From: an uncultured Candidatus Saccharibacteria bacterium
Lineage (GTDB): Bacteria; Patescibacteriota; Minisyncoccia; Phycocordibacterales; CAIRYW01
DNA length: 64,000 nucleotides
Reading direction: 5' to 3'
NCBI GenBank assembly: GCA_964446625.1
Contig: CAYUPH010000003.1
Span: 64,192 to 128,191 of the forward strand
The notes below the pieces were generated by a model. The model had not been told where the DNA came from. It saw only the letters and a list, made by a program, of their open reading frames with translations, and ran no database searches. A program made the position numbers and the translations under genes. Position 1 is the stretch's first letter. Each line of letters starts with the position of its first letter. This document shows positions 5,471 to 51,213 of this stretch, piece after piece.

Positions 5471-5854
5471 TTAGGCTGTAGCGTTGAACTGAATTTGAAA
5501 AAGGAGCGTAAAGCTTTTCATGCCGAGACGGAACATTGTGCCGTTTTCCATGCTTGAGGCACCAGCTTCCATTGCTTCACCTAACGTCATTTTTTCCCCA
5601 AGCTCAATTGCTTTCTCCGTTGCACCTGGGCCGTTCAAGTGGAGGGTATTGGGAATAGGTGCATCAGACCGGCTGACTATTGCCGTGGTAATTTCACCCC
5701 ACTGAATCCCGTCCGTTGCAAGGTTCAAAGTCGCACCAGCAAGGGATTTTGCGAAGGGAGCTACGGTCATTACCGACTGTTCGCCAGCGTCCAAGATGAG
5801 AACGAGGTAATGGTCCTTTTCTAATTTAACCCGGATGAATACGTTTGTTTTCAT
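5471..5854 (-). CDS. hypothetical small protein (possible roadblock/LC7-like fold)
   Basis: Likely start MKTNVFIRV... inside longer track ORF 5471..5977; sequence LVLILDAGEQSVMTVAPFAKSLAGATLNLATDG weakly resembles roadblock/MglB pattern. Confidence 0.4.
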   Translation of the reverse strand: MKTNVFIRVKLEKDHYLVLILDAGEQSVMTVAPFAKSLAGATLNLATDGIQWGEITTAIVSRSDAPIPNTLHLNGPGATEKAIELGEKMTLGEAMEAGASSMENGTMFRLGMKSFTLLFQIQFNATA

Positions 5855-5913
5855 AGCTAAAACTACAATAGCAATTAAAAAAAATAAATCAAACAATAAA
5901 AAAACCAGAGGGG

Positions 5914-6195
5914 TTAGCTCTGGGTATCGACGGGTATCGCGGTTACTCCTAAATATCTGAGCTCTTCGACTAGGCACCTTGCTGTGTGAAGAGCTTTTAA
6001 TTCGTTGAATGCACCTGTTCCGCGAGTGATTTCAGGCGGATTTTCTCCCAATTTTCTTTCACTTTTTAAGAGTGAGAACACTCCTGTTCGCATGATTTCG
6101 ACGATCAGCATTGCGAGTCCAGTTGTGTCGATTTCTTCAGGATCATCAACCTGCAAACAGAGTTTCTCGTCTATATATAATTCAAAAAATGGCAT
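5914..6195 (-). CDS. hypothetical small protein (93 aa), co-oriented with 5471..5854
   Basis: Intact ORF; motif LCLQVDDPEEI loosely similar to Cys-x-PEE/MPC motifs of the 24.5-25.9 kb paralogs. Confidence 0.4.
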   Translation of the reverse strand: MPFFELYIDEKLCLQVDDPEEIDTTGLAMLIVEIMRTGVFSLLKSERKLGENPPEITRGTGAFNELKALHTARCLVEELRYLGVTAIPVDTQS

Positions 6196-7383: not shown

Positions 7384-7410
7384 TCCTCAGTAGAAAGTGA
7401 GGAAGATATG

Positions 7411-7439
7411 GCTGATGACTAACATCATCAGCTTTTTTT
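7411..7439 (+). terminator. Rho-independent terminator
   Basis: gctgatga-ctaaca-tcatcagc hairpin followed by TTTTTTT. Confidence 0.65.
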
Positions 7440-7444
7440 ATTCT

Positions 7445-7933
7445 CTACATCATCCGCAAAAGCGCCTCGGCTGCTTCGATACCTTTGTTCATCATGCCAG
7501 TTGAGCGCACGAGAGCCTGCTCTAGTGTGTCTACAGTTAAAATCGCATTTGCAATCGGAGTTTCTTCGGAGAGCATAACATCCATAATTCCTCTTGTAGA
7601 TTCGCCAGAGATAAAAACGTAGTGGTCGGTGTCACCCCGAATCACACACCCTACTGCAATGACGCCTAAAACTTTTTTTTCTTTAATTACTTTTTTTGCA
7701 CAAAGGGGAATTTCGAATGCTCCTGGCGCTTCGACTATGAAAATATTTTTTTCTTGAATCCCTGCTTCCAAAAGGGTTTTGTACGCTCCGTCTCGAAGTG
7801 GGTAAGTAATGTCACTGTTATACGCGGAAACGACAATCGCAACTTTAGTAGTTTTTTTGATTTGTTTCCCCCCACCTGTTTTCTCTTGTTTGCGATTCAT
7901 ATTTTCTTTTTTAGATATTAAAACTTTACTCAA
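7445..7933 (-). CDS. ribH: 6,7-dimethyl-8-ribityllumazine synthase
   Basis: KVAIVVSAYNSDIT...GAFEIP...GCVIRGDTDHYVFI motifs of lumazine synthase; lysine-rich N-terminal extension. Confidence 0.85.
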   Translation of the reverse strand: MSKVLISKKENMNRKQEKTGGGKQIKKTTKVAIVVSAYNSDITYPLRDGAYKTLLEAGIQEKNIFIVEAPGAFEIPLCAKKVIKEKKVLGVIAVGCVIRGDTDHYVFISGESTRGIMDVMLSEETPIANAILTVDTLEQALVRSTGMMNKGIEAAEALLRMM

Positions 7934-8518: not shown

Positions 8519-8899
8519 TTAGCAGACAATCGGTCCTTCGTTCCAGTTTTTGTCCGACTTGTCGAGCTCAATTCTAATCATTTCAATGTCGTTTGCAATA
8601 AGCTCCTTTAGTTTCTCTGTATCAGCAATTTCAAAATCATCACGAATCTTTTCACAGATTTTTACGCAGATTTCTTTGCCGTAGAGCTCCCCTTCAAAGT
8701 CCAGAACATGCACTTCGATTACCGATGGGTTGTTTTTTGAAATATAAAGAGCTGCTTTGTGGTGTTCTTCTCCAAGTAGTGCGTACCCTGCGTAGATTCC
8801 AGGTTCCCCTGGATTTTGAAGCACAATATTTGCTGTTGGAAAGCCGATCTTTGTTGCTTCGCCTTTTCCTTTTATTACCTCGCCTTTGTGGGTTGTCAT
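8519..8899 (-). CDS. riboflavin kinase (stand-alone, no FAD synthetase domain)
   Basis: GFPTANI flavokinase motif; 126 aa. Confidence 0.7.
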   Translation of the reverse strand: MTTHKGEVIKGKGEATKIGFPTANIVLQNPGEPGIYAGYALLGEEHHKAALYISKNNPSVIEVHVLDFEGELYGKEICVKICEKIRDDFEIADTEKLKELIANDIEMIRIELDKSDKNWNEGPIVC

Positions 8900-8900
8900 A

Positions 8901-9437
8901 TTATTTTTTTCGCTGTGAATTTTTTAATACTTCTATATCTTTTTGAAGAAGTGAGAGCATTTCTTCAATTCGACTAATTGTGTCACTTTTTTGTTTTGCA
9001 TTTTCTTCATCGCTACCTTCCTCAATCTCCTCAACATCCTCTTGAATCTCATCAATGTCCTCCTGAATTTCGTCGACGTCCTCTTGAATCTCATCAATGT
9101 CTTCCTGGATTTCATCGACATTTTCTTCGATTTCTTCTACGTCTTCTTGGATTTCATCAATGTCTTCCTGAATTTCGTCGATATCTTTTCCTACCTCTTC
9201 GATTTCTTTTGTGTTTTGGTTTACTGAATACTGAATGAGTATAGAGAGGTAAATAGCCTCGAGGGAAACCAAGGTTGTAAGGAAAAGAAGTACTTGGTCT
9301 AAGTTAAACCCAAAAAGCGGAAGAACGAGACATAGTATAAAAAAAAGTGTATGAAGAATAAGTGAAGGTACTGAACCTACAGAGCGTGTCACTTTCTCCG
9401 CCAGTGTGTCTTCGGTTTTGAGTACTTTCTCTTTCAT
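8901..9437 (-). CDS. DUF1003-like two-TM membrane protein with long acidic heptad-repeat tail
   Basis: TM segments then LSILIQYSVNQNTKEIEE followed by (EIQEDID/EIEENVD)n repeats. Confidence 0.55.
   Translation of the reverse strand: MKEKVLKTEDTLAEKVTRSVGSVPSLILHTLFFILCLVLPLFGFNLDQVLLFLTTLVSLEAIYLSILIQYSVNQNTKEIEEVGKDIDEIQEDIDEIQEDVEEIEENVDEIQEDIDEIQEDVDEIQEDIDEIQEDVEEIEEGSDEENAKQKSDTISRIEEMLSLLQKDIEVLKNSQRKK
9017..9205. repeat. ~9 tandem 21-bp repeats inside CDS 8901..9437
   Basis: cctcttgaatctcatcaatgt / cctcctgaatttcgtcgacgt etc.; encodes acidic heptads; coding repeat, not CRISPR (no spacers). Confidence 0.7.
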
Positions 9438-9523
9438 ATGGCTATTCTAGCAAATAAACTTGAATTTAAAAACGATGACCTACTGTTTTTTGAGAATTTT
9501 CTGATTTCTGCTATAATCCTCGC

Positions 9524-9777: not shown

Positions 9778-10635
9778 ATGCATATATCAATCGCAGCAGA
9801 AACACTTTTTCATATCGGCGCTTTCCCTGTCACAAACAGCATGCTTATGGCATGGATTGTCGTTATCTTTCTTTCTGTAACAGTCTTTTTTGTTAGTCGA
9901 AATCCAAAGAAAGTTCCAGGACGGCTTCAAGCGCTTATGGAGCTTATTCTCGAGAAATTTGTTGATTTTATGCAAGTGTTTACTGGCGACAGAGCTCTTG
10001 TAAAAAAATATCTTCCAATTGTTGGAACAATCTTTTTCTTTGTTCTCTTTTCTAACTGGGCAGGAATTTTGCCTGGAGTTGGAACAATAGGTTTTTATGA
10101 AAAACATGAGGAGGAAGCGGTCAAAGAAGTTGTGGACATAGAAGGAGTAGAGGGAAACCCTGCTTCTCCTTCCGAAGTTCACGAAGCCGAAGCTCCTACT
10201 TCAGAGACTGCAGAGCATGAAAACGCTCCGCTTGTACCATTCTTTAGATCTGGATTTGCTGACCTCAACATGACGCTTGCGCTAGCGCTCATTGTTGTGA
10301 TTTCAACACACATCATTGGGTTTGTTTCAATTGGAGTTTCGCACCACATAGGAAAATTCTTACAAAATCCATTCAAAAAACCTATCGGCGCTTTCATTGG
10401 TTTTCTAGAGCTTATTGGTGAAGTTTCAAGAGTTGTCTCATTTTCTTTTAGGCTTTTTGGAAACCTGTTTGCAGGAGAGGTTCTTCTCATGATTATTTCT
10501 TCTCTTGTTCCCTATTTTATTCCGATTCCGTTTCTAGGGCTTGAAGTATTCGTAGGTTTTGTGCAAGCACTCATCTTCTCTACCCTTGCAATGACTTTTA
10601 TCGCAGCTTCAACGCAGCACCACGAGGAGCACTAA
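9778..10635 (+). CDS. atpB: F0F1 ATP synthase subunit a
   Basis: Conserved FRLFGNLFAGEVLL (essential Arg) region; contains unusual acidic ~55-aa insertion (EEEAVKEVVDIEGVEGNPASPSEVHEAEAPTSETAEHEN). Confidence 0.9.
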   Translation: MHISIAAETLFHIGAFPVTNSMLMAWIVVIFLSVTVFFVSRNPKKVPGRLQALMELILEKFVDFMQVFTGDRALVKKYLPIVGTIFFFVLFSNWAGILPGVGTIGFYEKHEEEAVKEVVDIEGVEGNPASPSEVHEAEAPTSETAEHENAPLVPFFRSGFADLNMTLALALIVVISTHIIGFVSIGVSHHIGKFLQNPFKKPIGAFIGFLELIGEVSRVVSFSFRLFGNLFAGEVLLMIISSLVPYFIPIPFLGLEVFVGFVQALIFSTLAMTFIAASTQHHEEH

Positions 10636-10666
10636 ATAAAATTAAATTTAGGTAGAAAAGTAACCG

Positions 10667-10694
10667 GCCGGCGTTCCTCTAGAGGAACGCCGGC
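10667..10694. terminator. perfect 28-bp GC palindrome just after atpB stop
   Basis: gccggcgttcctct|agaggaacgccggc; no clear T-tract, may be terminator/processing hairpin or part of the downstream structured element. Confidence 0.35.
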
Positions 10695-10699
10695 ACAAC

Positions 10700-11795
10700 C
10701 CACCACTGAAAAAACTTTCACTTTAATTTTTGCACGCTTTAATAAAACCGTGCAAGTGGAAAACGAAGTCAGCCCAGTCCCCCGTGTGGGGACTGGGCTG
10801 TGAGCTTTGTTGAATGGGGAATGGGAGCCGCCACCGTGTGTGGCGCTTAGAAGGGGTACGCTCGTCCATTGTATCCTCCTTCGAGGGACTGTGCTCCCAA
10901 TTCAACCAACGAGCTCTAATTAGAGTAATAACATAGATGTATTTACATGTCAATACGTAAACGAAATGAGCCCCGGCCTCCTGCTTGCGCAAGTGACCGG
11001 AGCTCTCCAGAGAGTATTTCGGCGCTAAGTAGGCGTAAAAGCCGGCAGCAGCCCTCTCTGGATTCGGTGAACAAGTTATGGTGTAACCTCCAACCACACC
11101 TTAACCCATCCACCAAAGTGAGAGGACGGAGAACCAAACTTTCCTAAACCAACGGATTGTTAAGTGTTGATTTGCCTAGTTCTCCGCCCAAAAGAGCGAA
11201 AATTGTGAAGTGATATTACTCACATTTTCGCTCTTTGTCAATATAAAATAAATGAGGAAGGTCCCGCCGGCACAGAGTGCTAGCGGGACCTTTTGTTAGC
11301 CACCCTGCTCCGGCGAATCCGACCCTTCGACTCGGTTTGGAGCATGAATGGCTCTACCTTTTGGTGGTTGCATGGCAACCTCTTTCGGCTAACCACCAAA
11401 TTGGGTGGCAGAGAAGCGCACGGCGCCTGATGAAACTCACCCGAGCCCAGCAGACAATTCCATTTTGCCCGCGCTTCTCCGCCAAATTTAAGGCCAAGGC
11501 GACGATTGATTTCCGAAAACCCGTCTAGTTGGGTTTATTTGCTGTTCGTCGCCTTGGCCAAAGCATGAAAACCGTTTATTAGCCTACTCCTTAAGTAAAA
11601 ATAGTCAAATGAAGATGGCCCGGCTGCAGCTGCAGCCGGGCCCCGATTCGAGCGTGCAAAAGCCCCGTTAAGCACCTCGATGTTCCGAGCGGCCAAGCGA
11701 ATGCACACAGGGCCCAGATACCCTGGTGCATTTCCGCTCGAAAGATTAAAAAGCCGCTAAAACTATACATTAAATATACTTAATGTCAAACAGTT
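10700..11795. ncRNA. candidate large structured non-coding element (unclassified) between atpB and atpE
   Basis: ~1.1 kb without convincing ORF, locally GC-rich in AT-rich context, dense in long perfect stems (cagcccagtcccc/ggggactgggctg; ggtcccgccggc...gccggcgggacc-like; ggccaaggcgacg/cgtcgccttggcc; gcccggctgcagctgcagccgggc; ttcgagcg/cgctcgaa; ttggtgg/ccaccaa enclosing ggttgcatggcaacc). Confidence 0.35.
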
Positions 11796-11800
11796 TTCCC

Positions 11801-11829
11801 TTGCGAGAGCCTAAAATTTGGCTTATAAT
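11801..11829 (+). promoter_or_regulatory. sigma70-like promoter for atpE-atpC
   Basis: TTGCGA - 17 nt - TATAAT about 55 nt upstream of atpE ATG. Confidence 0.55.
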
Positions 11830-11885
11830 ACGCGCAAATGACCGAAAGGTCTTATTTATTTGTTTATTAATAATTATAAAAAAAC

Positions 11886-12113
11886 ATGGAAGTAGAAAAC
11901 CTTAAAGTATTTGCAGCAGCCCTTGCTATCGGTGTCGGAGCTCTCGGTCCCGCTATTGGAATCGGAAACCTTGCCGGAAAAGCTATGGAATCAATTGGAC
12001 GAAATCCAGAAGCTGCTTCAAAAGTACAATCAGCGATGATTCTTGCTATCGCCTTTACAGAAGCGATTGCAGTTTACGCTCTTGTAGTTGCCCTTATTAT
12101 CCTTTTTGCTTAG
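11886..12113 (+). CDS. atpE: F0F1 ATP synthase subunit c
   Basis: 75 aa hairpin proteolipid, conserved carboxylate helix ...[20 protein letters not shown]. Confidence 0.9.
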
Positions 12114-21651: not shown

Positions 21652-22920
21652 TTAAAACAAATCGTCTCCAGTGATACTTTCAACTCTTTTGTTGTAATTG
21701 ACAGATCGTTTTACAAAGAAGTCGAGGTGCTTTGTTGTCATGATTTCGTCGTTAAACCATTCAGTCTCCTCGAGAAGTTTCTCGTCAATTGTAAAGAGTT
21801 TCTTGAATCCAATTGCTGAAAGTGAGTTATTGAATCGGTTTTTGATGAACTCAAGAACTGTAGCTTTTGAAAGGAACGGAATCTCTCCTTTTTCAAAAAT
21901 CCAATCTACAATTGCCTGCTCTGCTGCAAATGCCTCGTTGCATAAATCGTACACAGACTGCTCGTACTCTTCTGTAAACCACTCTGGGTGTTCTGTTTTA
22001 ATAATTTTAAGAAGGTCGATACCAAAGAGTCCGTGAATTTGCTCTTCTTTTGAAGTCGCTTCAATAACATTCGACATTCCTCGGAAGAGTCCTTTGAACT
22101 TGTTGAAGGACATGATGATGAGGAATTGTGAAAACAGCGACACATGTTCAATAAACAAAGAAAAAAGAAGAAGTGTTCGAGAATAATCTTTGTGATGATC
22201 AGAATGTGCGTTTGCAATCGCCTTTTCAATATAGTTGATTCGGCTAATGATTGCAGGAACCTCTTTGATTTTTTCGAATTCAGCATTTAGTCCAAGGATT
22301 TCAAGAAGGTGCGCGTAGGCGTCTTGGTGACGCACTTCACTTTCTGCAAAAGTTGCTCCCACAGCACCAACTTCTGGCTTTGGAATTTTTTTGTAAATGT
22401 CTCCCCAAAAAGTTTTTACAGACACTTCTACTTGAGCAATTGCGAGCATTGCATTTTTGAGAGCGTTTTTCTCTGCTTCGCTTGTGTTGACGAGGTAATC
22501 GTGAATATCAGAAGTAAAATTAAACTCAGTGTGTAGCCAATATGAGTGACGAATTCCGTCTACATACTCCAGGAGCTCTGGGTACTCATAAGGCTTTAGT
22601 GCTAGTCGCTTCTTAAAGATGTCTCGCTTTCGAAGTTCTGCCTGTTTCTGTCTGTAGAGGATATACGCCTTTGCAGTCGCGTGTAGTCCTGAGTCCATGA
22701 GCGCAAATTCTACTTGATCCTGAACACCTTCAACTGTTGGTGTACTGTCTCCAAACTTTTCTTCAAGATTTTTGATGGCAAGGTCTGTAATTTCAGAAAT
22801 TTTTTGCTTTGAAGCTTCTTCTCCAGTTGCAACGCACGCTTTTCTAATAGCTTCTTCGATTCGAACTCGGTCGAATTCGACAATCGAACCATTTCTTTTT
22901 ATTACAAGTTGTATTGCCAT
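21652..22920 (-). CDS. nrdB: ribonucleotide reductase beta (R2) subunit with N-terminal ATP-cone domain
   Basis: N-terminus VIKRNGSIVEFDRVRIEEAIRKA...AKAYILYRQ (ATP-cone) fused to ferritin-like R2 core (iron ligands in ...EAIH.. / ..EEQIHG.. regions). Confidence 0.8.
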   Translation of the reverse strand: MAIQLVIKRNGSIVEFDRVRIEEAIRKACVATGEEASKQKISEITDLAIKNLEEKFGDSTPTVEGVQDQVEFALMDSGLHATAKAYILYRQKQAELRKRDIFKKRLALKPYEYPELLEYVDGIRHSYWLHTEFNFTSDIHDYLVNTSEAEKNALKNAMLAIAQVEVSVKTFWGDIYKKIPKPEVGAVGATFAESEVRHQDAYAHLLEILGLNAEFEKIKEVPAIISRINYIEKAIANAHSDHHKDYSRTLLLFSLFIEHVSLFSQFLIIMSFNKFKGLFRGMSNVIEATSKEEQIHGLFGIDLLKIIKTEHPEWFTEEYEQSVYDLCNEAFAAEQAIVDWIFEKGEIPFLSKATVLEFIKNRFNNSLSAIGFKKLFTIDEKLLEETEWFNDEIMTTKHLDFFVKRSVNYNKRVESITGDDLF

Positions 22921-23062: not shown

Positions 23063-24430
23063 CTACTCCGGGTCAAAAATAGAAGGCGAAAATAGCTCTC
23101 CTGCAAGAAGTTTTGCAACTTTCCACCCACCATAAATTGATGGCATGAGTCCAACACCGTTACACCCAAGGTTATAAAAGAGATTATGATCTTCTTTTTC
23201 CGGACCAATGAGTCGAATACGGTTTTTTGTGTAGCCCATGAGTCCGTGCCAGCTAAAAGTGTGCTCTATTTTTTTGTTCGGGTGCAGTTTGTAGGTTTTT
23301 TTCACAAAGCTGTCTATCTCGCCAATGATTTCGTGTGTAAGGAGTGCTTTTTTGTCATACAAATGTTTCTGTTCAACAAAATTCCCGGGGCCTCCAACAG
23401 AAATAAGGTTGTGCTCCACTCCCTTTTCGTATTCATATTGCCTTCGAGTCAGATAAAAGTAGTTTAATTCGTCGCTCGCAAGCCCAGTATCTGGGTTTTG
23501 AATGTAACTTATCGCAATCGGCGGTTTATTCATCTTTTCAAGGTAAGCAGACATGTAGCCAATATATCCTTCGAGGTTCTCGTGGAATTTTCTGTTAATA
23601 GAAAGTCCGCCTTTTGCAAATATTTCAATATGCTCGAAGCCGTTCGTACAAAGAACAACATCGATTGCAGTGATTGTGTGGGTTATGGCGTCCAAAATCC
23701 CATAGTTTTCTTCCATTACTATTTTTTTAATCGGTGTTTTCTCAAAAAGTGTAAATCTCTCCGGATATTTTCGAGACAAATAGTCTGCAATTTCATTACA
23801 AATGAGCGCACTGTTCGCACACCCCTTCTGTGAAGACAAAAGCGCAACATAGCTGTCGTCAGTTGTTTCAAGACACTCCATAATTTTTTCGCGAGCTGTA
23901 AGTTCATAAAGTCCCGCGTACTTTTCAGGAATTTCGCGAAGGAATTTTGCATCGTCTGCAATTTGTAATCTTTCAAAGTTGATTTCACCTTCCTTTCGAC
24001 AACGATTATTTTCAAGACACTCCAGAACATGCTGATACCCAGTAAGTCCTGTGTAGCCAGTAAAGCGAGCAACAGGAATATTTAGTCCAGCTTCTGTGTA
24101 CATAAGGTCAAAAAGAGCCCATGTTTCCTCAATGGCTTTTTGACCTTCGGTTGCCATTTTTACTCCGAACATTTCAGCAATTTCGTAGAGTTGCTTTTCA
24201 AAATACGTCACCATGTGTCCCCCGTTGTGCCCTGAAGCCCCATGCGCAACACGGTCTGCGTCTACAAGAACAACATTTTTGTCTGTCTCTCGTAGTATAA
24301 AAAAGGCAGTTGAGATACCTGCAATACCAGCTCCCACGATGACAACATCAGTACTTACATCTTCTGTAAGTTTTTTTGCTTCTCTTTGAATGTTAAGCTG
24401 ATGTATCCAAGGGGAACGATTTTCGTGCAT
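23063..24430 (-). CDS. FAD-dependent oxidoreductase (DAO/glycine-oxidase-like)
   Basis: N-terminal dinucleotide fold VVIVGAGIAGISTAFF. Confidence 0.75.
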   Translation of the reverse strand: MHENRSPWIHQLNIQREAKKLTEDVSTDVVIVGAGIAGISTAFFILRETDKNVVLVDADRVAHGASGHNGGHMVTYFEKQLYEIAEMFGVKMATEGQKAIEETWALFDLMYTEAGLNIPVARFTGYTGLTGYQHVLECLENNRCRKEGEINFERLQIADDAKFLREIPEKYAGLYELTAREKIMECLETTDDSYVALLSSQKGCANSALICNEIADYLSRKYPERFTLFEKTPIKKIVMEENYGILDAITHTITAIDVVLCTNGFEHIEIFAKGGLSINRKFHENLEGYIGYMSAYLEKMNKPPIAISYIQNPDTGLASDELNYFYLTRRQYEYEKGVEHNLISVGGPGNFVEQKHLYDKKALLTHEIIGEIDSFVKKTYKLHPNKKIEHTFSWHGLMGYTKNRIRLIGPEKEDHNLFYNLGCNGVGLMPSIYGGWKVAKLLAGELFSPSIFDPE

Positions 24431-24478
24431 ATCATAAATTATATCATAAGAAATTTTGGCATTAAAAAAAGCAGCTGG

Positions 24479-24931
24479 TTAGGCTGCTGCGAGGAGCGGA
24501 GGTGGTTTGGAACCTCTGCTGTAGTCCATAAAGACCCGAATCCCTCTCTGCGCAAGTAGATGCAGGATACTCTCGGCGAGCTCAGGGACAGAAAATAGTG
24601 TAGACGGCCGATGAATAGTAACTGTCATCGATCCAGTTTTCCCTGTTTCGTAAACCGCATCTATCCACAGAAGCAGTTCGTCACACTTCCCCTTAACTAC
24701 TTGCAGGGGCTCCAACGGGTTGCGAGAAGACCTGTTTCCTAAGCCGGTCTCATTTATAATGATTCCGGTTGCGCTCCTAAGGTCCCTTCTTGCGAAAACA
24801 ACAGGAACATACAAATAGACTTGCTTTCCTGTGATTTGCTTATTCGGGAATTCTTCCGGCTCACAAAGACCCGAAAGTCTCACAAGGGTTTCGCGAGCTA
24901 AAAGCTCGATGGCTGTTGCTTGTTTCTTCAT
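24479..24931 (-). CDS. hypothetical protein, GC-rich, member of 3-gene paralog-like cluster
   Basis: 150 aa; GLCEPEEFP motif resembling FCxVxxxMPCxP of neighbours. Confidence 0.45.
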   Translation of the reverse strand: MKKQATAIELLARETLVRLSGLCEPEEFPNKQITGKQVYLYVPVVFARRDLRSATGIIINETGLGNRSSRNPLEPLQVVKGKCDELLLWIDAVYETGKTGSMTVTIHRPSTLFSVPELAESILHLLAQRGIRVFMDYSRGSKPPPLLAAA

Positions 24932-25010
24932 CTACCAAAATAATACAACATTTAGTATAAAAAGTAAACAAATAAAAAAACTCCTAGGAAACCCTAGGAG
25001 CCTAATTGTG

Positions 25011-25439
25011 TTATTTGCCCCAAAGCAGATTTGCTAGCTTCGGAGTAGGAACTAGAATGATATCCTCCTCTCCTTCCTGCCCTATCATTTGCATCTCCAC
25101 GAAGCCCTCTAGGACCAGCCTCATGAAGCCGTGTGAAAGAGCAAGAAAGTCATCAATCCCCAATTCCACAAGCGGGATAGCTGCATGATGGTCAACTTCT
25201 TTTCCGAGCGCACCTTCCCTCCACTGGAGCTCCAGGTGTCTCAAGAAAGTTGTCACAAGAATCCCTACCCACCTTCCCTTGTCACAGGAGAAGTGAACTA
25301 GCTCTTCTGCTATGTAACATGCCTCCTCTGATAGTGTGGCGTGTGGACGAGGAATCTTGCGTCCAGCAAGTTTTTTGGGCTTGCAAGGCATTTTTGACAG
25401 CACTTGGCAAAAGCCGTCAGCAATTAAAGGATTTGCCAT
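25011..25439 (-). CDS. hypothetical protein, GC-rich paralog B
   Basis: 142 aa; GFCQVLSKMPCKP ... LVPTPKLANLL, paralogous to 25507..25911 product. Confidence 0.5.
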   Translation of the reverse strand: MANPLIADGFCQVLSKMPCKPKKLAGRKIPRPHATLSEEACYIAEELVHFSCDKGRWVGILVTTFLRHLELQWREGALGKEVDHHAAIPLVELGIDDFLALSHGFMRLVLEGFVEMQMIGQEGEEDIILVPTPKLANLLWGK

Positions 25440-25506
25440 AAAGAACAGGCGCTATTTTACAATATTTTTGCGAGATTTCAATAAAAAATCCCCAGGCGTT
25501 GGGGAG

Positions 25507-25911
25507 TTATGTGAGAGCTGCTTGCTGAAGTAGAGTCCCCACAAGTTTGGCAGTGGGAAAGTAGAAGACTCTACCCTCAAGGAATGATAGTTCTACCCAC
25601 CCTTCCCTTGTAAGTGTAATCAGTTGAAGTTCAACGATGACACCTTCGGCTTGACTTCGTGAATCTTTGAAGAGATGTTCTGCTGAAACTCCTACCCAGA
25701 ACCCCTGAGCCCCGGAGTTGGATAGTAGTCGAACTACTGCTACAACTCCAGGTATTGCACAGGCAAGGATAGTTCTCTCCAAATCTTTGCCGAGGATGTC
25801 TTGAGGGGTGCAGGGCATTTCTTCTGCAACAGTGCAGAAGTCTCCGCCCAGATAGGAATGATTTGTCATAAAGAGCGTTTGAACTCTACAACACTTTTGA
25901 GAGGATTTCAA
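25507..25911 (-). CDS. hypothetical protein, GC-rich paralog C (possible roadblock/LC7-like)
   Basis: GDFCTVAEEMPCTP ... IPGVVAVVRLLSNSGAQGFWVG ... YFPTAKLVGTLL; true start may be internal MTNHSY. Confidence 0.5.
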   Translation of the reverse strand: MKSSQKCCRVQTLFMTNHSYLGGDFCTVAEEMPCTPQDILGKDLERTILACAIPGVVAVVRLLSNSGAQGFWVGVSAEHLFKDSRSQAEGVIVELQLITLTREGWVELSFLEGRVFYFPTAKLVGTLLQQAALT

Positions 25912-26238
25912 TTACTCGTCTCTGTTTTCTCTTTCCTCCATTTCTCGGTAGCAAATTTCTTTATAGCCAGTGTTGCATATGTCGAGTATTTCGCTCTCAG
26001 AAAATCCGGAGATTTTATAAGCTGACTCATTATTTTCATCCATAAGTGCAACCGTGTATGTTCCATCTTCTTCCCTTTTTAAACCATAGAGGCTCACCCA
26101 CCCAATACCAATTCCCTCTTTGATTTCAGGTACTGTTTTTAAATCTGGTGGAGTTTCATCAAAAGTGCCTCTAGGAAAAAAGTAAGTTTCTAGTAGTTCT
26201 TCTATTTTACTTCGGTGTTCAGGTTCTTTTTCGCTCAT
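25912..26238 (-). CDS. hypothetical acidic protein (108 aa)
   Basis: Intact ORF, AT-rich codon usage like host. Confidence 0.4.
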   Translation of the reverse strand: MSEKEPEHRSKIEELLETYFFPRGTFDETPPDLKTVPEIKEGIGIGWVSLYGLKREEDGTYTVALMDENNESAYKISGFSESEILDICNTGYKEICYREMEERENRDE

Positions 26239-26340
26239 GTTTGTATAGTAGCATGAAAGTTTTAGCTAAAACAAAAGCCGCCTTGTGACGGGCTTTTGTT
26301 TTCTATAAAAGGAAACTGTGGTGAAAATTTAGGACAAATA

Positions 26341-26559
26341 AACTAATCGACACCTAAACTTTTTTTAACTCTCGCAATCTCTTCTGCGTTTGTTTCTCCT
26401 AATTCTTCTAGTCTCCTTCTATCTTTTTCTAAATCTTCTTCATCACCTGGTGAAAGTTCTTCTCCATAAACCCTTGGAGCATCGGTAGTAGCTATTCTTT
26501 TTATTAAAATCTCTACTTCGCCCCAAGACCTATCTGGCTTATTAAAATAAGCTGCTGGA
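26341..26559 (-). pseudogene. 3' gene remnant (72-codon C-terminal fragment without start codon)
   Basis: Minus-strand frame reads ...NPAAYFNKPDRSWGEVEILIKRIATTDAPRVYGEELSPGDEEDLEKDRRRLEELGETNAEEIARVKKSLGVD* but upstream in-frame stop and no Met; lies between terminator-like repeat and defence island. Confidence 0.35.
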
Positions 26560-26738: not shown

Positions 26739-28622
26739 TTAAGATTGCCATTTATCCAAGAGATTAATAGTTTGACTTACGGGCTGATTTTTTCTATTTG
26801 AAATTTTACCAACTTTCATTACAACTGGGATTTGAGCAAGCAAGCCAGCAAGAATACATGTACCAGTTGCTAGGTTTGGAATTGAATCAGCAGATACCTT
26901 ATCCAAATAGGCAATTGTTTTTTCAACAGCCAATAAATCATTATTATTAATAAGTCTGTGTAGAAAATAATTATGAAGTTGTGAAATGATTGTCGGAGAT
27001 ATATCTGAAGGTCTTTGACTTGAAATAGTAAGGAATGTACCGAACTTTCTTCCTTCTTTAATAATCTCCTCAAATGTTTCCAATCTGTAATCTTTCCATT
27101 GCTCACTCTCACGTTGAGAACTACCAGATAGTATATTGTGAGCTTCATCAATAATTATATGTAGCGAATTTTCCTTATTATTACTAGATTTTTTAGTATC
27201 ATAAAGCTCCTTACAAATAAGTAGAGGTAGCATTTTTCTAATATCCAAGTTTACATCCTTTAGGGATATAATAGTAAGATTTTTAACAAACCTTTCTCTT
27301 CCTTGCACTGAAATAACCTTTTCCAAATCAAGAACCCTTTTTTCCATTCGCTTGATTAATGGAGAAAGATGTTCACGGTTTGAAAAACCTCTAATCATTT
27401 CATCATAATATTTTATAATAATTCTGACTCCAATTTTCTTAATACCCGATAATAATGAAACATCAATAGTTTCAATTGAATTAATGGTGTCTTCGATTTT
27501 TACAGCAAATGTTGGCGAATCACTATAGATTTTATCTGATAGGCCAGACTTTAGGTAAAAACTAATATTCTCATTGCCACCAAATAAATTCCCTTTAAAA
27601 TAATCTCCGGCTAATTTAAGGTCATTATTATCCAAAAAAGAAGCTAATTCATAAAGTAAATCTACAGTTAGTGACCTATCAATATTTTTTCCACTAATTG
27701 AAGTCGCAGCTTTTATTTTCTCTATAATCAACCCTTTAAATGATTCATCAGTATTTATTCTAGATTCTATGTAATAATCTTTTATTGCCCTATTTATAAA
27801 TGGAATCTGAGTCTTTTCTGTAGCTTCAAGAAAGATTGACCAGAAACTTACATCTTTTAAGGTCTCCTTTTTTATAGGAAACCTATCATCTCCCTCATCT
27901 GTGCTAGTTGAAAGTTTATATACATTTTTATATTTTTTTTCAATTATCACATCATCGTCAGCATATTCGCCATTAAAATCAATCATAAAAAACTTTGCTT
28001 TTGACTTAAAACTGGCATTGTCTTTAAATTTCTTAAACAATTCTCTAAATAATTTTGCCAATGTGTATGATTTTCCACTTCCTGTGTTTCCAAAAATTCC
28101 GATATGACTAGCAAATAAACTATTAATACCTAAATCAATTCTCTGCCCATCATCGTAAGCTAATGTACCAACCTCGATTCTCTCATCTCCTTTTTGTATA
28201 AAATTGTGGATTTCTTCAAACTCCTCCTTGCGTAATAAAAAACACTTATTATCAATAAGGGGTAATTCCTTAATACCTCTGTAAAATGAACCGTCCTCAA
28301 TAAAGCCGAGTATTTTGACGTTTAAAATTCTATTTATCTTTTCTTTATTACTCTTATAACTTGTTTTAAGATAGTCCCTATCTTCAGTGATTGACTCTCC
28401 TTCAATTTTTCCAACCATCTCTAAAAAACCTTTTTTTATTTTAATGTATCCACCCACAAAAATATTTTGGATTATGTCTCCTTTATATAAAACTGAAGAA
28501 GTATTTTTTCCCTTATCAACTTTAATTTTAATTGATTGCCCCTCAACAGCAAAAACTACCCCAATTCTAAATATTGAATTATCAACAATATGTGTTCCGG
28601 TATTATTTTCCAGTATTTTCAT
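26739..28622 (-). CDS. herA: HerA-like (FtsK/HerA superfamily, DUF87) ATPase, partner of SIR2 in SIR2-HerA defence system
   Basis: 627 aa; N-terminal HAS-barrel-like region, Walker A GIFGNTGSGKSYTLAKL, Walker B LHIIIDEAHNIL; 6 nt downstream of SIR2 gene. Confidence 0.8.
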   Translation of the reverse strand: MKILENNTGTHIVDNSIFRIGVVFAVEGQSIKIKVDKGKNTSSVLYKGDIIQNIFVGGYIKIKKGFLEMVGKIEGESITEDRDYLKTSYKSNKEKINRILNVKILGFIEDGSFYRGIKELPLIDNKCFLLRKEEFEEIHNFIQKGDERIEVGTLAYDDGQRIDLGINSLFASHIGIFGNTGSGKSYTLAKLFRELFKKFKDNASFKSKAKFFMIDFNGEYADDDVIIEKKYKNVYKLSTSTDEGDDRFPIKKETLKDVSFWSIFLEATEKTQIPFINRAIKDYYIESRINTDESFKGLIIEKIKAATSISGKNIDRSLTVDLLYELASFLDNNDLKLAGDYFKGNLFGGNENISFYLKSGLSDKIYSDSPTFAVKIEDTINSIETIDVSLLSGIKKIGVRIIIKYYDEMIRGFSNREHLSPLIKRMEKRVLDLEKVISVQGRERFVKNLTIISLKDVNLDIRKMLPLLICKELYDTKKSSNNKENSLHIIIDEAHNILSGSSQRESEQWKDYRLETFEEIIKEGRKFGTFLTISSQRPSDISPTIISQLHNYFLHRLINNNDLLAVEKTIAYLDKVSADSIPNLATGTCILAGLLAQIPVVMKVGKISNRKNQPVSQTINLLDKWQS

Positions 28623-28628
28623 TTATGT

Positions 28629-29675
28629 CTATACAACTTCTTCAACAAGGTCATTTTGACCAATAATCGGACCAAAAATATCTTTATTTAATGTTTCAAA
28701 ATTATATTTCCTTCCATCTTCTGGTACCACAATTTTAATATTTTTATTTTTTGCTTCGTTTTCCATTTTCTCAAAAATTACCGATTTGCTTCCATGTGCA
28801 AATATGTATATTTTTAATGTTGGATTTGATGCGGCCACCCGAGTGGTCATATCCCTAATATGTTCATCGGCTAATGAAGATCCAATAACAAACAATACAC
28901 TATTTTCTTTTTCTAATTCATTTGAATATATCCTCAATAAGTCATAATAGTACTGTTGAAGAAGTGTGGTTTCATATTTAGCCTTCGTCGGATTCACGAT
29001 AACAAGCTTCTTATAGTATTTATCGAATTCATCACCATCTATCTTGTCAGCAACATCTCTAACATTCTGTAGATTCTTGTCTAATGAGATTACAGCCTCA
29101 TTTCCTATCTCATCAAACTTCCAAGTTAATGATCCGTGAATTTTAAGTATATTAAATACGGGTATTTCAGATGTGTTTTCATAATGAAGACTTTTCATAA
29201 AATATGATTTTTTAAAATTACCTAGATTGAATGTTGGATTAAATCTACCATTGAATCCATCATTGAATTCTATCCCTGTCCCTTCCAACGCCTTTTCAGA
29301 AAAAATATCTATATTTGTCGTAAATATATTTACTTGTTTAGTTAGAATAGAATTTTCTCTTTTTAGAACCAAATTATTTAATATTTTGTAAAAATTCGTA
29401 TAATTAGACATAACATAGTCTTTGTCTACTTCTAAAACATCATCCAATACCTTAATATTTCCTAACATAACTTTATTAAAATACTCTTTTTTCTTACTCA
29501 AGATTTCTTCACTTGTTTTAGATGTATCAGATAAAAAGAGCTCGATATCATTAAGAGTATCAAGAAAAGGCTTTGAAAGACCCGCACCTATCAAAAAGTT
29601 AATATTTGCACTGTCAATTGTTTTCTTTATATCTCTGAGAAGCGGTGTGTAATTAGACATATGTTGATTATGCAA
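28629..29675 (-). CDS. SIR2-family (DUF4020/SIR2_2-like) NAD+-utilising protein
   Basis: 348 aa; NINFLIGAGLSKPF Rossmann/NAD motif, TTNIDIF (Asn), KIHGSLTW (catalytic His), VLFVIGSSL C-terminal motif. Confidence 0.8.
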   Translation of the reverse strand: MHNQHMSNYTPLLRDIKKTIDSANINFLIGAGLSKPFLDTLNDIELFLSDTSKTSEEILSKKKEYFNKVMLGNIKVLDDVLEVDKDYVMSNYTNFYKILNNLVLKRENSILTKQVNIFTTNIDIFSEKALEGTGIEFNDGFNGRFNPTFNLGNFKKSYFMKSLHYENTSEIPVFNILKIHGSLTWKFDEIGNEAVISLDKNLQNVRDVADKIDGDEFDKYYKKLVIVNPTKAKYETTLLQQYYYDLLRIYSNELEKENSVLFVIGSSLADEHIRDMTTRVAASNPTLKIYIFAHGSKSVIFEKMENEAKNKNIKIVVPEDGRKYNFETLNKDIFGPIIGQNDLVEEVV

Positions 29676-29863: not shown

Positions 29864-29990
29864 AGTTAAAACTTATAAAAACTAGATAATTCCAGACCCC
29901 TAGCGGAATTTCTCCCTCGACTCAAGACTCGTCAGCCACTCGTCTTGGTCTGGGCACCAGCTCACTTGTTTTTACTGCTGTAAAAACATA

Positions 29991-30046
29991 GTTCCGCTGT
30001 TCGAATCCGCACGCAAGCAAAGTAGTTTGCTTGCTTAGGGTCCACC
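29991..30046 (+). other. tRNA-Ala 3'-half-like fragment in inverted orientation (T-arm-like + acceptor 3' strand)
   Basis: ccgctgTTCGAATCCgc ... ttagggtccacc mirrors AGCGGTTCGAATCCGCTAGGGTCCACC of adjacent tRNA-Ala but with 24-nt hairpin insert; cannot fold as tRNA. Confidence 0.4.
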
Positions 30047-30049
30047 GGA

Positions 30050-30076
30050 AAAACAAAAGCCGCCTTGTGGCGGACT
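30050..30076 (-). terminator. Rho-independent terminator after tRNA-Ala
   Basis: minus strand GTCCGCC-ACAA-GGCGGC followed by TTTTGTTTTT. Confidence 0.6.
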
Positions 30077-30091
30077 TAAGTTTTTCTACGG

Positions 30092-30164
30092 TGGACCCTA
30101 GCGGATTCGAACCGCTGACCTCCTCAGTGCAAATGAGGCGCTCTACCAACTAAGCTAAGGGCCC
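30092..30164 (-). tRNA. tRNA-Ala (anticodon UGC)
   Basis: GGGCCCTTAGCTTAGTTGGTAGAGCGCCTCATTTGCACTGAGGAGGTCAGCGGTTCGAATCCGCTAGGGTCCA; cloverleaf folds, G3:U70 Ala identity pair, GTTCGAATC T-loop, CC encoded. Confidence 0.9.
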
Positions 30165-30200: not shown

Positions 30201-30258
30201 CCTTCATTTGCACAAATGAGTCGGCTAAAATCTTCTTTGCCAACTAAGCTAAGGGCCC
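30201..30258 (-). pseudogene. degenerate partial copy of tRNA-Ala 5' half
   Basis: 19-nt exact duplicate GGGCCCTTAGCTTAGTTGG (acceptor + D-arm) plus CTCATTTGtGCA anticodon-loop-like piece, remainder diverged. Confidence 0.5.
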
Positions 30259-50360: not shown

Positions 50361-50858
50361 TTAGGCTTCCTTGGCGTGCATTAAAAGGATTTCCCCGTAG
50401 AAATCTCTCGTGGTGGAAATTCTTCCCCTCGACAAGATAGCAAACTGACCTGTTTCCATTGTCCATTTACCACCTACTTTCTTTAGGAAAACTTGGAAAG
50501 ATTGACCTTCTCCGAGTAGAAGAACTCCTTTTATTAGCTTGTAGCCCGCGCCATTTAACAAGGCGCAAACTTCACGGGCAAGGGCTTCAAGTTTATATTT
50601 TACTTCTTCTCGAGACATTGTTTTGTCCCAAGAAGCAAAAATACAACCACACTCTCCTTTTACCTTAAATCCGATGAAAACTTTTTGAACAAGCTCGGAA
50701 ATTTCTGACCTTACCTTTTTAAAAGACTTTCCTCGGATATGAACCCGAATTTCCATACTCGCAAAACTATACCTCAAAAATATTTTTTGGCAATAAAAAA
50801 AGAGAAGGAGGAGACCTTCTCTAAAATGGAAACGGCAAGGGCTCACGACCTTGAGCAA
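50361..50858 (-). CDS. hypothetical protein
   Basis: Intact ORF; probable start at internal MEIRVHIRG (~50756); no family recognised. Confidence 0.35.
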   Translation of the reverse strand: MLKVVSPCRFHFREGLLLLFFYCQKIFLRYSFASMEIRVHIRGKSFKKVRSEISELVQKVFIGFKVKGECGCIFASWDKTMSREEVKYKLEALAREVCALLNGAGYKLIKGVLLLGEGQSFQVFLKKVGGKWTMETGQFAILSRGRISTTRDFYGEILLMHAKEA

Positions 50859-50859
50859 T

Positions 50860-51213
50860 CAACCAGGCATTAAACCCGGCGTATGTAGTGAAATAACACC
50901 AGAAACTGTCGAATTCAAGTCTTACTCGGTGGGCCTCTCTGAGGTAGTTTTGAGTGAAAGTCTTTCCCTCCCAGAGGTGAAATTGACTGCGTATGATGTA
51001 GCCAACATCCTGGTTCCGACATCCGAGGCGAATTTGTCCGACCCACTTAAGACAACCATCCTGATTATGAATCCCGGGAAATGGGGTGCCTAGCGACTCA
51101 ACAACGCCTGGCTCTAAGTCCGTTATTTGGTGCGCATCGCACCCATAAAAGGAGAATGAAAAGATCATAACTCTTTTACTCTACACCCGACACATACTTT
51201 TTTCAAAGTGGAA
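50860..51213. other. GC-rich ~350-nt intergenic segment (possible ncRNA or unannotated small gene)
   Basis: Locally elevated GC, perfect hairpin ggtgcg-cat-cgcacc, short ORFs in both strands of doubtful coding quality. Confidence 0.25.

Follow-up and report, generated by a model that had tools for sequence, protein, structure and literature searches.

Are the three small genes that stand out by their high guanine-plus-cytosine (GC) content in the genome of an uncultured Candidatus Saccharibacteria bacterium parts of one acquired module, and what might their products do? The genes, A, B and C, lie at positions 24479-25911 on the minus strand of the window, by which we mean the whole 64,000-nucleotide stretch of contig CAYUPH010000003.1 (assembly GCA_964446625.1) that was analysed. 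An earlier note on this DNA had described them as three paralogs in a horizontally acquired accessory module close to a defence island. The reading that we favour, with a probability of roughly 0.55, is that B and C are a tandem pair from a family of small, stand-alone winged-helix proteins and lie on acquired DNA together with A, an unrelated orphan.

Two paralogs and an orphan

The three co-oriented open reading frames (ORFs) were confirmed. Gene A (24479-24931) encodes a basic orphan protein of 150 amino acids (aa; isoelectric point, pI, 9.2), gene B (25011-25439) a diverged, short member (142 aa) of a predicted winged-helix family marked by the motifs MPCxP, WVGVS and FPTP, and gene C (25507-25869) a paralog of B with 120 aa; all are on the minus strand. 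C is thereby shortened from 134 aa, the length that it would have from a TTG codon at 25911 (25507-25911). Gene predictions from four public sources begin C at the ATG at 25869, a start that aligns C with the N-terminus of the family, whereas the TTG falls within the -35 box of C itself, and C is best read as a protein of 120 aa from this ATG. The chance of a stop-free run of 120-150 codons at 48.5% GC is 0.0005-0.002 per frame, and the ORFs of A, B and C are not chance products of their composition. An overlapping antisense gene was considered and rejected, as the antisense ORFs in the cluster reach only 60-74 aa. The next gene, D (25912-26238, minus strand), encodes an acidic orphan of 108 aa with a GC content of 0.38; it is a neighbour of the cluster outside the B/C family.

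B and C are related at the protein level (BLASTP E=1e-7, 26% identity over 130 columns, spanning the MPCxP and FPTxKL motifs) and form sister branches, both very long, in a neighbour-joining tree of the family. Their upstream regions align as well, at about 70%, in the pattern ATTGAAATC..CAAAA.T.TTGTA......CTCTTTATG. Since the promoters of B and C can be aligned, a tandem duplication is indicated, and the simplest origin of the pair would be a duplication that included the promoter, with strong divergence since.

The common motifs that had been listed for all three genes are thus present in B and C (MPCxP and FPTxKL), whereas the likeness of the segment GLCEPEEFP in A has no statistical support. 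In BLASTP comparisons A matched B at E=0.46 and C at E=13; against the profile of 68 family sequences, hhalign returned a probability of 0.3% for A, and a search with the family hidden Markov model (HMM) gave no reportable score even with all filters off. On these three grounds A was rejected as a third paralog, and D was likewise rejected as a family member by profile comparison and a filter-free HMM search. Neither A nor D has relatives among the neighbour genes of the family loci. The exact A protein is recorded in NCBI, JGI, Logan and ENA, and no homolog was found in a database of 5.8 billion proteins, GenBank phages, plasmids, PDB or 1.36 Mb of Patescibacteria loci. Structure prediction was informative for B (see below) but not for A, whose single-sequence AlphaFold2 model was unusable (predicted local distance difference test score, pLDDT, 37.7) and was not used. 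A is an orphan unrelated to B and C, like them only in its composition and in having a transcription unit of its own.

An undescribed family of small proteins

When B alone was used as the query of a word-indexed search, only B itself was recovered. A profile of B and C, run in full with HMMER against 1.84 billion representative proteins, retrieved 12 proteins, and a 13-sequence profile found 62 matches among 5.8 billion proteins, with E values between family members down to 1e-49. A further 19 metagenome loci with a family gene were found with a core alignment of 24 sequences as the query. The homologs number about 70 in total, and an alignment of 68 sequences was used for the profile, the conservation analysis and the fold prediction. 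All 62 matches of the 13-sequence profile are hypothetical or unnamed proteins, none with a Pfam domain. Few of them carry taxon labels (proteins of metagenome-assembled genomes (MAGs), Staskawiczbacteria, Pacebacteria or 'bacterium'), and among the homologs with a taxon name the family appears in Patescibacteria only.

Pfam and NCBIfam gave no match for the family; Pfam had none for A, B or C at E<=1 and no consistent weak match when all 68 members were compared. PADLOC and PHROGs returned nothing for A-D or for one usual family member, IMG/VR had no family match, GenBank phages had none for A or for the usual member P0020, and plasmids had none for A.

The usual form of the protein has about 187 aa and carries the motifs MPCxP, EEAAARxxSFSQ, WVGVS and FPTPxL, with the consensus GLFxVEExMPCxPRxI...EEAAARIISFSQQLDQWVGVSW...[basic stretch]-LCVLTLGIYALFVxKP...PFSGIF..GP.HVVTGIxEL...GMLK....FFPTPxLISxIMExQGV. 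In B numbering, W57, G59 and P131 are invariant, P21 and T132 are present in 67 of the 68 members, and the N-terminal cysteine (C19, in MPCxP) is found in 61, including both B and C. The two genes of the window differ from the usual form in having neither the hydrophobic insert of about 45 residues between helices H2 and H3 nor the structured 5' leader. Short forms of 129-148 aa also occur in a few other lineages. Judged from these comparisons, B and C are trimmed outliers of an undescribed family of small proteins.

The 5' leader of the usual members is an observation in its own right. It is conserved over the roughly 50-70 nt that precede the gene (L087, L094, L100, L101, L103, L104, L109; designations of this type denote the loci compared) and begins with a hairpin, P1, of the form TTAAGC-N8-GCTTAA, with compensatory and G-U variants such as TTAAGT/AACTTA and GTGAGT/GCTCAT. 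Downstream of the hairpin comes (T)GyACATTTCC, in which the UUUCC pairs with a strong GGAG ribosome-binding site. The leader resembles an element of translational control. Automatically aligned, 14 leaders were too divergent for a consensus structure, and individual folds were used. None of A, B and C in the window has the conserved leader.

A predicted winged-helix fold

Based on the 68-sequence alignment, AlphaFold2 produced a model of B with a pLDDT of 85.6 and a predicted template modelling score (pTM) of 0.79. The model has an N-terminal strand (residues 10-12) and a short helix (21-24), followed by H1 (38-54), S1 (58-61), H2 (62-77), H3 (95-110), a hairpin of S2 (114-119) and S3 (126-131), and H4 (133-140). 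The loop at 78-94 is of low confidence and is the site of the insert in the usual form, and the conserved cysteine lies on the N-terminal strand and loop ahead of the core. The fold is confidently predicted to be a winged helix, in the order H1-S1-H2-H3-S2-S3, with a wing hairpin and a short C-terminal helix.

In a Foldseek search of PDB with this model, the replication terminator protein (RTP; 1bm9, E=0.027) came first, followed by PadR, Pex, LmrR and QsrR chains, and the list also held the C-terminal winged helix of Scc1 and the N-terminal winged-helix domain of an O-methyltransferase. In BFVD the matches were phage helix-turn-helix proteins and the N-termini of replication initiators (best E=0.038). 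The named fold matches listed are all winged-helix proteins or contain a winged helix, and there is no roadblock fold among them. A profile search against PDB sequences gave AdcR (E=0.31, second overall) as the best match to a bacterial winged helix-turn-helix (wHTH) protein.

These results bear directly on the roadblock/LC7 pattern that had been reported for C. No Robl_LC7 or other Pfam match was obtained for A, B or C at E<=1, nor was there one among the 68 members, and the segment in question, IPGVVAVVRLLSNSGAQGFWVG, aligns to H1-S1 of the predicted winged-helix core. Furthermore, the roadblock fold is an alpha-beta-beta-alpha-beta-beta-beta-alpha sandwich, whereas the B model runs H1-S1-H2-H3-S2-S3-H4. 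An associated GTPase had been suggested along with this pattern; there is none next to the cluster and none next to family members in eight other contexts, and the winged-helix model leaves the search for such a partner without a basis. The complete model of the earlier note, in which three paralogs form one acquired module with a roadblock/LC7 member, a GTPase or sensor and possibly a link to defence, does agree with the co-orientation, adjacency and elevated GC of the genes and with the motifs in B and C. Nevertheless, A is unrelated, the genes are separate transcription units, the fold is a winged helix with no Robl_LC7 match, the family gene is elsewhere single-copy without a GTPase neighbour, and the nearby SIR2-HerA defence system is complete as two genes. 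We consider this model very improbable.

Likeness to known winged-helix proteins

Among the best Foldseek matches are PadR/MarR-like wHTH proteins (Bacillus subtilis PadR 5x11, LmrR, Pex 2e1n and AdcR 3tgn), which resemble B and C in size (about 110-180 aa) and in being encoded by stand-alone genes, and which have the same topology as B, H1-S1-H2-H3-wing and then a C-terminal helix. However, the 68 members have no Pfam or NCBIfam match that would place them with PadR, MarR or HxlR, and the template modelling scores (TM-scores) are about 0.4. The B/C family also differs in its extra N-terminal strand and MPCxP loop, in the hydrophobic insert (about 45 aa) that separates H2 from H3 in usual members, and in having its conservation on the beta-strands instead of the recognition helix.

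RTP of Bacillus subtilis, the best structural match of B (probability 0.96, 116 aligned columns), shows the same alpha1-beta1-alpha2-alpha3-beta2-beta3-alpha4 order. The match is not significant, with 14% identity and a root-mean-square deviation of 6 A, and B has no link to replication termini; in place of the long alpha4 dimerisation helix of RTP, B has a helix of eight residues. Phage and plasmid replication initiators are a further comparison, since the winged-helix N-termini of such proteins (lambda GpO, RepA-like) are among the best BFVD matches of B, and a serine recombinase or a Replic_Relax protein is encoded close to some members of the family. On the other hand, the E values are all at least 0.038, the IMG/VR and GenBank phage searches were negative, and the window has no adjacent replication genes.

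OhrR, QsrR/YodB and HypR are 1-Cys thiol-switch wHTH sensors. B and C resemble these in combining a predicted winged-helix core with a single conserved cysteine near the N-terminus, and the QsrR chains 4hqe and 4hqm are in the Foldseek list. The cysteine of B and C is in the MPCxP loop, unlike the helix-alpha1 cysteine of OhrR and the CP motif of HxlR/DUF24, the family has no Pfam MarR or HxlR match, and 7 of its 68 members do not have the cysteine. The comparison with thiol switches is a working analogy only.

Transcription units

Each gene of the cluster is framed by its own signals on the minus strand. Gene A has a promoter-like site at 24940-24968 (TTTACT-17-TATTAT), which ends 8 nt before the ATG, and a terminator-like hairpin at 24470-24488 (AGCAGCCTAACCAGCTGCT, then TTTTTTT). 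Gene B has a promoter-like site at 25454-25481 (TTGAAA-16-TAAAAT, 10 of 12 matches), homologous to that of C, and a terminator-like hairpin at 24978-25003 with an 11-bp stem and a T-run. For gene C the promoter-like site is at 25883-25911 (TTGAAA-17-TAGAGT), where a block in common with a related strain (L116) begins, and the terminator-like hairpin, of intrinsic type and conserved in L116, is at 25489-25505. The promoter-like matches are sigma-70-like, the distance from the -10 element to the ATG is 8-14 nt, and the 7.7-kb region holds 11 terminator-like sites compared with 4.8 +/- 2.2 in shuffles. Since every gene has a promoter-like site and a terminator, with the -10 element close to the ATG, the cluster is read as three separate, nearly leaderless units and no operon.

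Base composition of the cluster and of the family

As had been noticed, the cluster is GC-richer than its surroundings (0.488 for A, 0.487 for B and 0.477 for C, against a window mean of 0.393), and the neighbouring SIR2 and HerA genes have a GC content of 0.29-0.30. At third codon positions (GC3) the contrast holds for two of the three genes. The 57 non-overlapping ORFs of the window have a mean GC3 of 0.338 with a standard deviation (SD) of 0.067, so that A (0.48) and B (0.49) stand about 2.1 and 2.3 SD above it, while C reaches only 0.39 and owes its GC excess to codon positions 1 and 2. The ATP synthase and ribonucleotide reductase (RNR) genes of the window have an ordinary GC3 (0.27-0.37), from which it follows that in this genome GC3 is not raised by high expression.

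Where a GC-rich island stands out from an AT-rich genome, it is often a structured RNA, and each GC-rich block of the cluster ends in a terminator, so one could ask whether the blocks are structured non-coding RNAs and the ORFs incidental. This is scarcely credible. There was no Rfam match at the gathering threshold or at E<=1, the z-scores of the folding energies are unremarkable (-1.6 for B, -0.5 for A), the distribution of GC over codon positions is coding-like (0.56/0.43/0.48 in gene A), and the amino-acid sequences of B and C match a protein family.

Two other ORFs of the window have a high GC3, namely 50821-51168 (minus strand, 115 aa, GC3 0.50) and 5471-5977 (minus strand, 168 aa, GC3 0.45). 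Their translations are odd-looking and do not match the B/C family, and GC-rich non-coding elements with spurious ORFs over them are a possible explanation.

In other genomes the family gene is single-copy and stand-alone, and its contexts are unrelated from lineage to lineage. It lies beside Ddl and FtsH (L087), between rpiB and pyrE (L092), in a polysaccharide cluster next to an SLFN-type helicase/S24 protein (L089), among DNA-metabolism genes (L091) and among hypothetical genes near Replic_Relax (L114). Nucleotide similarity between family loci is limited to the gene and about 150 nt on either side. At L093 (5767-7077 on the minus strand and 7398-7820, 8655-9068 and 9114-9473 on the plus strand) the family gene is part of a 2.2-kb GC-rich block beside a large serine recombinase. 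This block also holds an ORF of 140 aa and a pair of small ORFs (137 and 119 aa) that resemble each other; the arrangement is a candidate integrative element carrying the family.

The GC3 of the family gene exceeded the mean of its neighbours in all 16 independent loci (sign test, 1.5e-5), ranking first in eight of them, with a median z of 1.8. Examples are 0.73 against 0.36 (L105), 0.69 against 0.39 (L100) and 0.84 against 0.59 (L115). C and G at third positions of the family genes rise equally, and this, together with the ordinary GC3 of the ATP synthase and RNR genes, led us to reject translational selection for C-ending codons as the source of the excess. A single donor of fixed GC was also rejected, as the family gene exceeds its host even where host GC3 is about 0.58-0.59. 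Because the excess is found across the family in every host examined, GC-richness is no simple donor signature. Elevated GC, including GC3, is thus a family-wide trait, for which both repeated transfer and a GC-raising process such as biased gene conversion are possible explanations.

History of the locus

NrdB (21652-22920), downstream of the cluster, has its closest relatives in MAGs of Patescibacteria (also known as CPR, the candidate phyla radiation), the best being L007 (85%) and L008 (81%). Both keep the NrdB-NrdA-Sua5-AA kinase order downstream, with the ATP synthase genes retained in L007 as well. The break in synteny is located exactly upstream of NrdB, and genes A-D, SIR2-HerA and the other upstream genes are absent from both relatives. 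The exact locus is present, 100% identical, in six public contigs; samples in which it occurs are SRR6837570, SRR6837549, SRR6837555, ERZ17987696 and JGI 3300015606. The variable region is anchored by a tRNA-Ala(UGC) gene (30090-30164, minus strand), about 4 kb from the cluster. Based on these comparisons, the cluster is lineage-specific and lies in a variable stretch flanked by tRNA-Ala and the ribonucleotide reductase genes. Its atypical composition, its lack in close relatives and the variable site near a tRNA gene make it plausible that A-C lie on horizontally acquired DNA, and the cluster would have arrived by horizontal transfer or by recombination into a hotspot. Of the proposed acquired accessory module, the atypical, lineage-specific and variable character is retained, but not its unity, each gene having signals of its own.

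The FAD (flavin adenine dinucleotide) oxidoreductase gene at 23063-24430 (minus strand) does adjoin A, as had been stated. On the other side, the end of HerA is about 0.8 kb past C, with the orphan D between them. SIR2 (28629-29675, minus strand; Pfam SIR2_2, PADLOC E=4e-60) and HerA (26739-28622, minus strand; Pfam DUF87/HerA, PADLOC E=5e-177) make up a two-gene defence system at 26739-29675 (minus strand) with a GC content of about 0.30. SIR2-HerA is known as a two-gene system (PMC13434337). The low-GC segment is bracketed by a pair of 35-nt palindromic, terminator-like direct repeats with 89% identity, the proximal copy at 26268-26302 and the distal copy at 30050-30084, immediately downstream of tRNA-Ala. 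This arrangement fits an island inserted at a tRNA-proximal site. Near tRNA-Ala there are also tRNA-like fragments, an inverted copy of the T-arm (29990-30010, plus strand) and a 24-nt, 92% repeat of the 5' part of the tRNA (30235-30258, minus strand), which are possible scars of earlier integrations.

The related strain L116 carries a variant of C (P0006) with 95% protein identity; the C unit has 97% DNA identity from the -35 box through the terminator. In L116 the position of D (window 25912-26267) is taken by a major facilitator superfamily (MFS) transporter gene (L116 1538-2822). The swap is cassette-like and has sharp boundaries, set by the 35-nt terminator repeat at one end and by the -35 box of C at the other. 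L116 also has an intact gene for a 200-aa protein (L116 860-1462), of which the window has only the 3' end (about 26350-26549, minus strand; 93.6% nucleotide identity), and this gene was apparently truncated in the window when the SIR2-HerA segment arrived.

In L116, C is present and there is no SIR2 or HerA in 2.8 kb upstream; none of the other family loci examined has SIR2 or HerA either. Since the genes are separate units, A-D have no PADLOC match and L116 has C without SIR2 or HerA, the cluster is no accessory of SIR2-HerA. The proximity to a defence island that had been pointed out is therefore real but without a functional tie, and the cluster abuts the island and is independent of it.

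Outside codons 3-8, the two copies of C differ at 2 of about 330 coding positions, both changes being non-synonymous. In a nearby segment in common with L116, 18 of 282 positions are changed (6.4%; Fisher P=4e-5 in comparison with C). The contrast fits a recent exchange of the C unit, but it is suggestive only, since in the window the segment compared belongs to a pseudogene fragment. Within codons 3-8 (25846-25866), a 20-nt patch is scrambled by indels and substitutions relative to L116, in copies that are otherwise about 99% identical; the N-terminus of C ahead of the conserved G-D-F-C is free to vary.

The comparison with L116 also bears on whether these genes are functional at all. B and C could be decaying, truncated copies, and A and D fortuitous or very young ORFs, at a hotspot of recombination. 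In favour of this reading, the central insert and the 5' leader are gone from B and C, whose branches are very long, both differences between the C copies outside the N-terminal patch are non-synonymous with codons 3-8 scrambled by indels, A and D have no homolog in our searches, and a truncated gene fragment lies close by (about 26350-26549). Decay of this kind is nonetheless improbable, as the frames are intact, fill the spacing between promoter-like and terminator-like sites and would hardly arise by chance, while the model of B is compact and confident without the insert and short members of 129-148 aa occur in other lineages. In addition, C is nearly unchanged in the second strain, whereas the nearby common non-coding segment differs by 6.4%.

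Binding partner and function

If B and C are functional proteins, they would be small, stand-alone winged-helix binding proteins, likeliest DNA-binding regulators or factors associated with mobile DNA, and by analogy with 1-Cys wHTH sensors their N-terminal cysteine may switch them. Several findings weigh against this proposal, or against parts of it. The invariant residues are on the beta-strands S1 and S3, off helix 3, and the conserved positions of H3, the presumed recognition helix, are mainly hydrophobic and glycine, so helix 3 is not necessarily the surface used for binding, and DNA, RNA or protein may be bound. The insert of the usual form sits exactly at the tight turn of a DNA-binding helix-turn-helix, the family is mostly acidic (median pI 5.7), no operator was identified for B or C, and the cysteine is missing in 7 of the 68 members. 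None of the structural matches is significant (best E 0.027 in PDB and 0.038 in BFVD, TM-scores about 0.4), and they therefore support an assignment of fold only and no family membership. No gene neighbour is conserved across the family loci examined. As to acquisition, there is neither an integrase nor a flanking repeat at 24.4-25.9 kb to speak for mobility of the A-C block itself, and the family gene is GC-richer even than the GC-rich hosts L114 and L115, which is hard to explain by donor composition alone. For A, the evidence comprises the ORF, its flanking signals and the pattern of GC by codon position.

The position of the invariant residues on S1 and S3 instead of helix 3, together with the acidic character of the proteins, would suit a second proposal, in which the winged helix of B and C binds protein or RNA through the invariant beta-sheet surface (WVGVS, FPTP) and does not serve transcription control. 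Possible roles are those of a translational autoregulator, a maintenance factor of a mobile element or an anti-defence factor. The 5' leader of usual members, with its hairpin and anti-Shine-Dalgarno pairing, is of the kind found in autoregulated mRNAs; the structural matches include winged helices that bind proteins (Scc1-C and the dimerisation domain of O-methyltransferase); and some members lie beside recombinase, relaxase-related or defence-type genes. However, no partner gene is conserved beside the family, B and C do not have the leader, and no match was found in anti-defence, defence or phage libraries. We regard protein or RNA binding as a tentative and unlikely alternative, albeit one to be taken seriously, and continue to favour a small stand-alone winged-helix family that is represented here by the tandem pair B and C, with the orphan A, on acquired DNA.

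Other features of the window

The NrdB encoded at 21652-22920 (minus strand) has an N-terminal ATP-cone (Pfam PF03477 and PF00268), an arrangement described for class Id-type NrdB. The FAD oxidoreductase beside nrdB (23063-24430, minus strand) is of the DAO family, and homologs with 38-45% identity lie near nrdAB in L007, L041, L059 and L064.

In the F-ATPase operon, a 1.25-kb spacer devoid of ORFs (10636-11885, plus strand; GC about 0.49) separates atpB (9778-10635) from atpE (11886-12113). It folds into at least five long, near-perfect hairpins of 11-19 bp; Rfam gave no credible match to it, and the loci fetched showed no nucleotide similarity. In L007, the 1.2 kb upstream of atpE is likewise without atpB. 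The spacer may represent one large structured RNA, several palindromic elements in an array, or a mobile insert.

Conclusions

A broader proposal, doubtful as it is at present, is that the family genes are self-contained, single-gene cassettes that move between Patescibacteria by recombination without a dedicated integrase, have a GC3 held above that of every host and encode a new functional class of cysteine-bearing winged-helix factor. If this were true, each cassette would consist of a promoter, a leader, an ORF and a terminator, and a persistent force would act on GC3, for example nucleotide-level selection or the GC-biased gene conversion that comes with frequent exchange. In this genome the DNA downstream of tRNA-Ala would then be a landing pad that collects C, B, A, D or MFS cassettes in addition to the defence island.

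In conclusion, our analyses describe a previously undescribed family within a very common fold, with an odd compositional trait that runs through the whole family. Patescibacteria have small genomes with many unannotated genes and very few recognised regulators. Within them, a lineage-restricted winged-helix family with defined motifs, a fold model and a structured leader is a concrete target for biochemistry. The excess of GC3 in all 16 loci provides a compact test case for distinguishing repeated transfer, biased gene conversion and selection in streamlined, AT-rich genomes.

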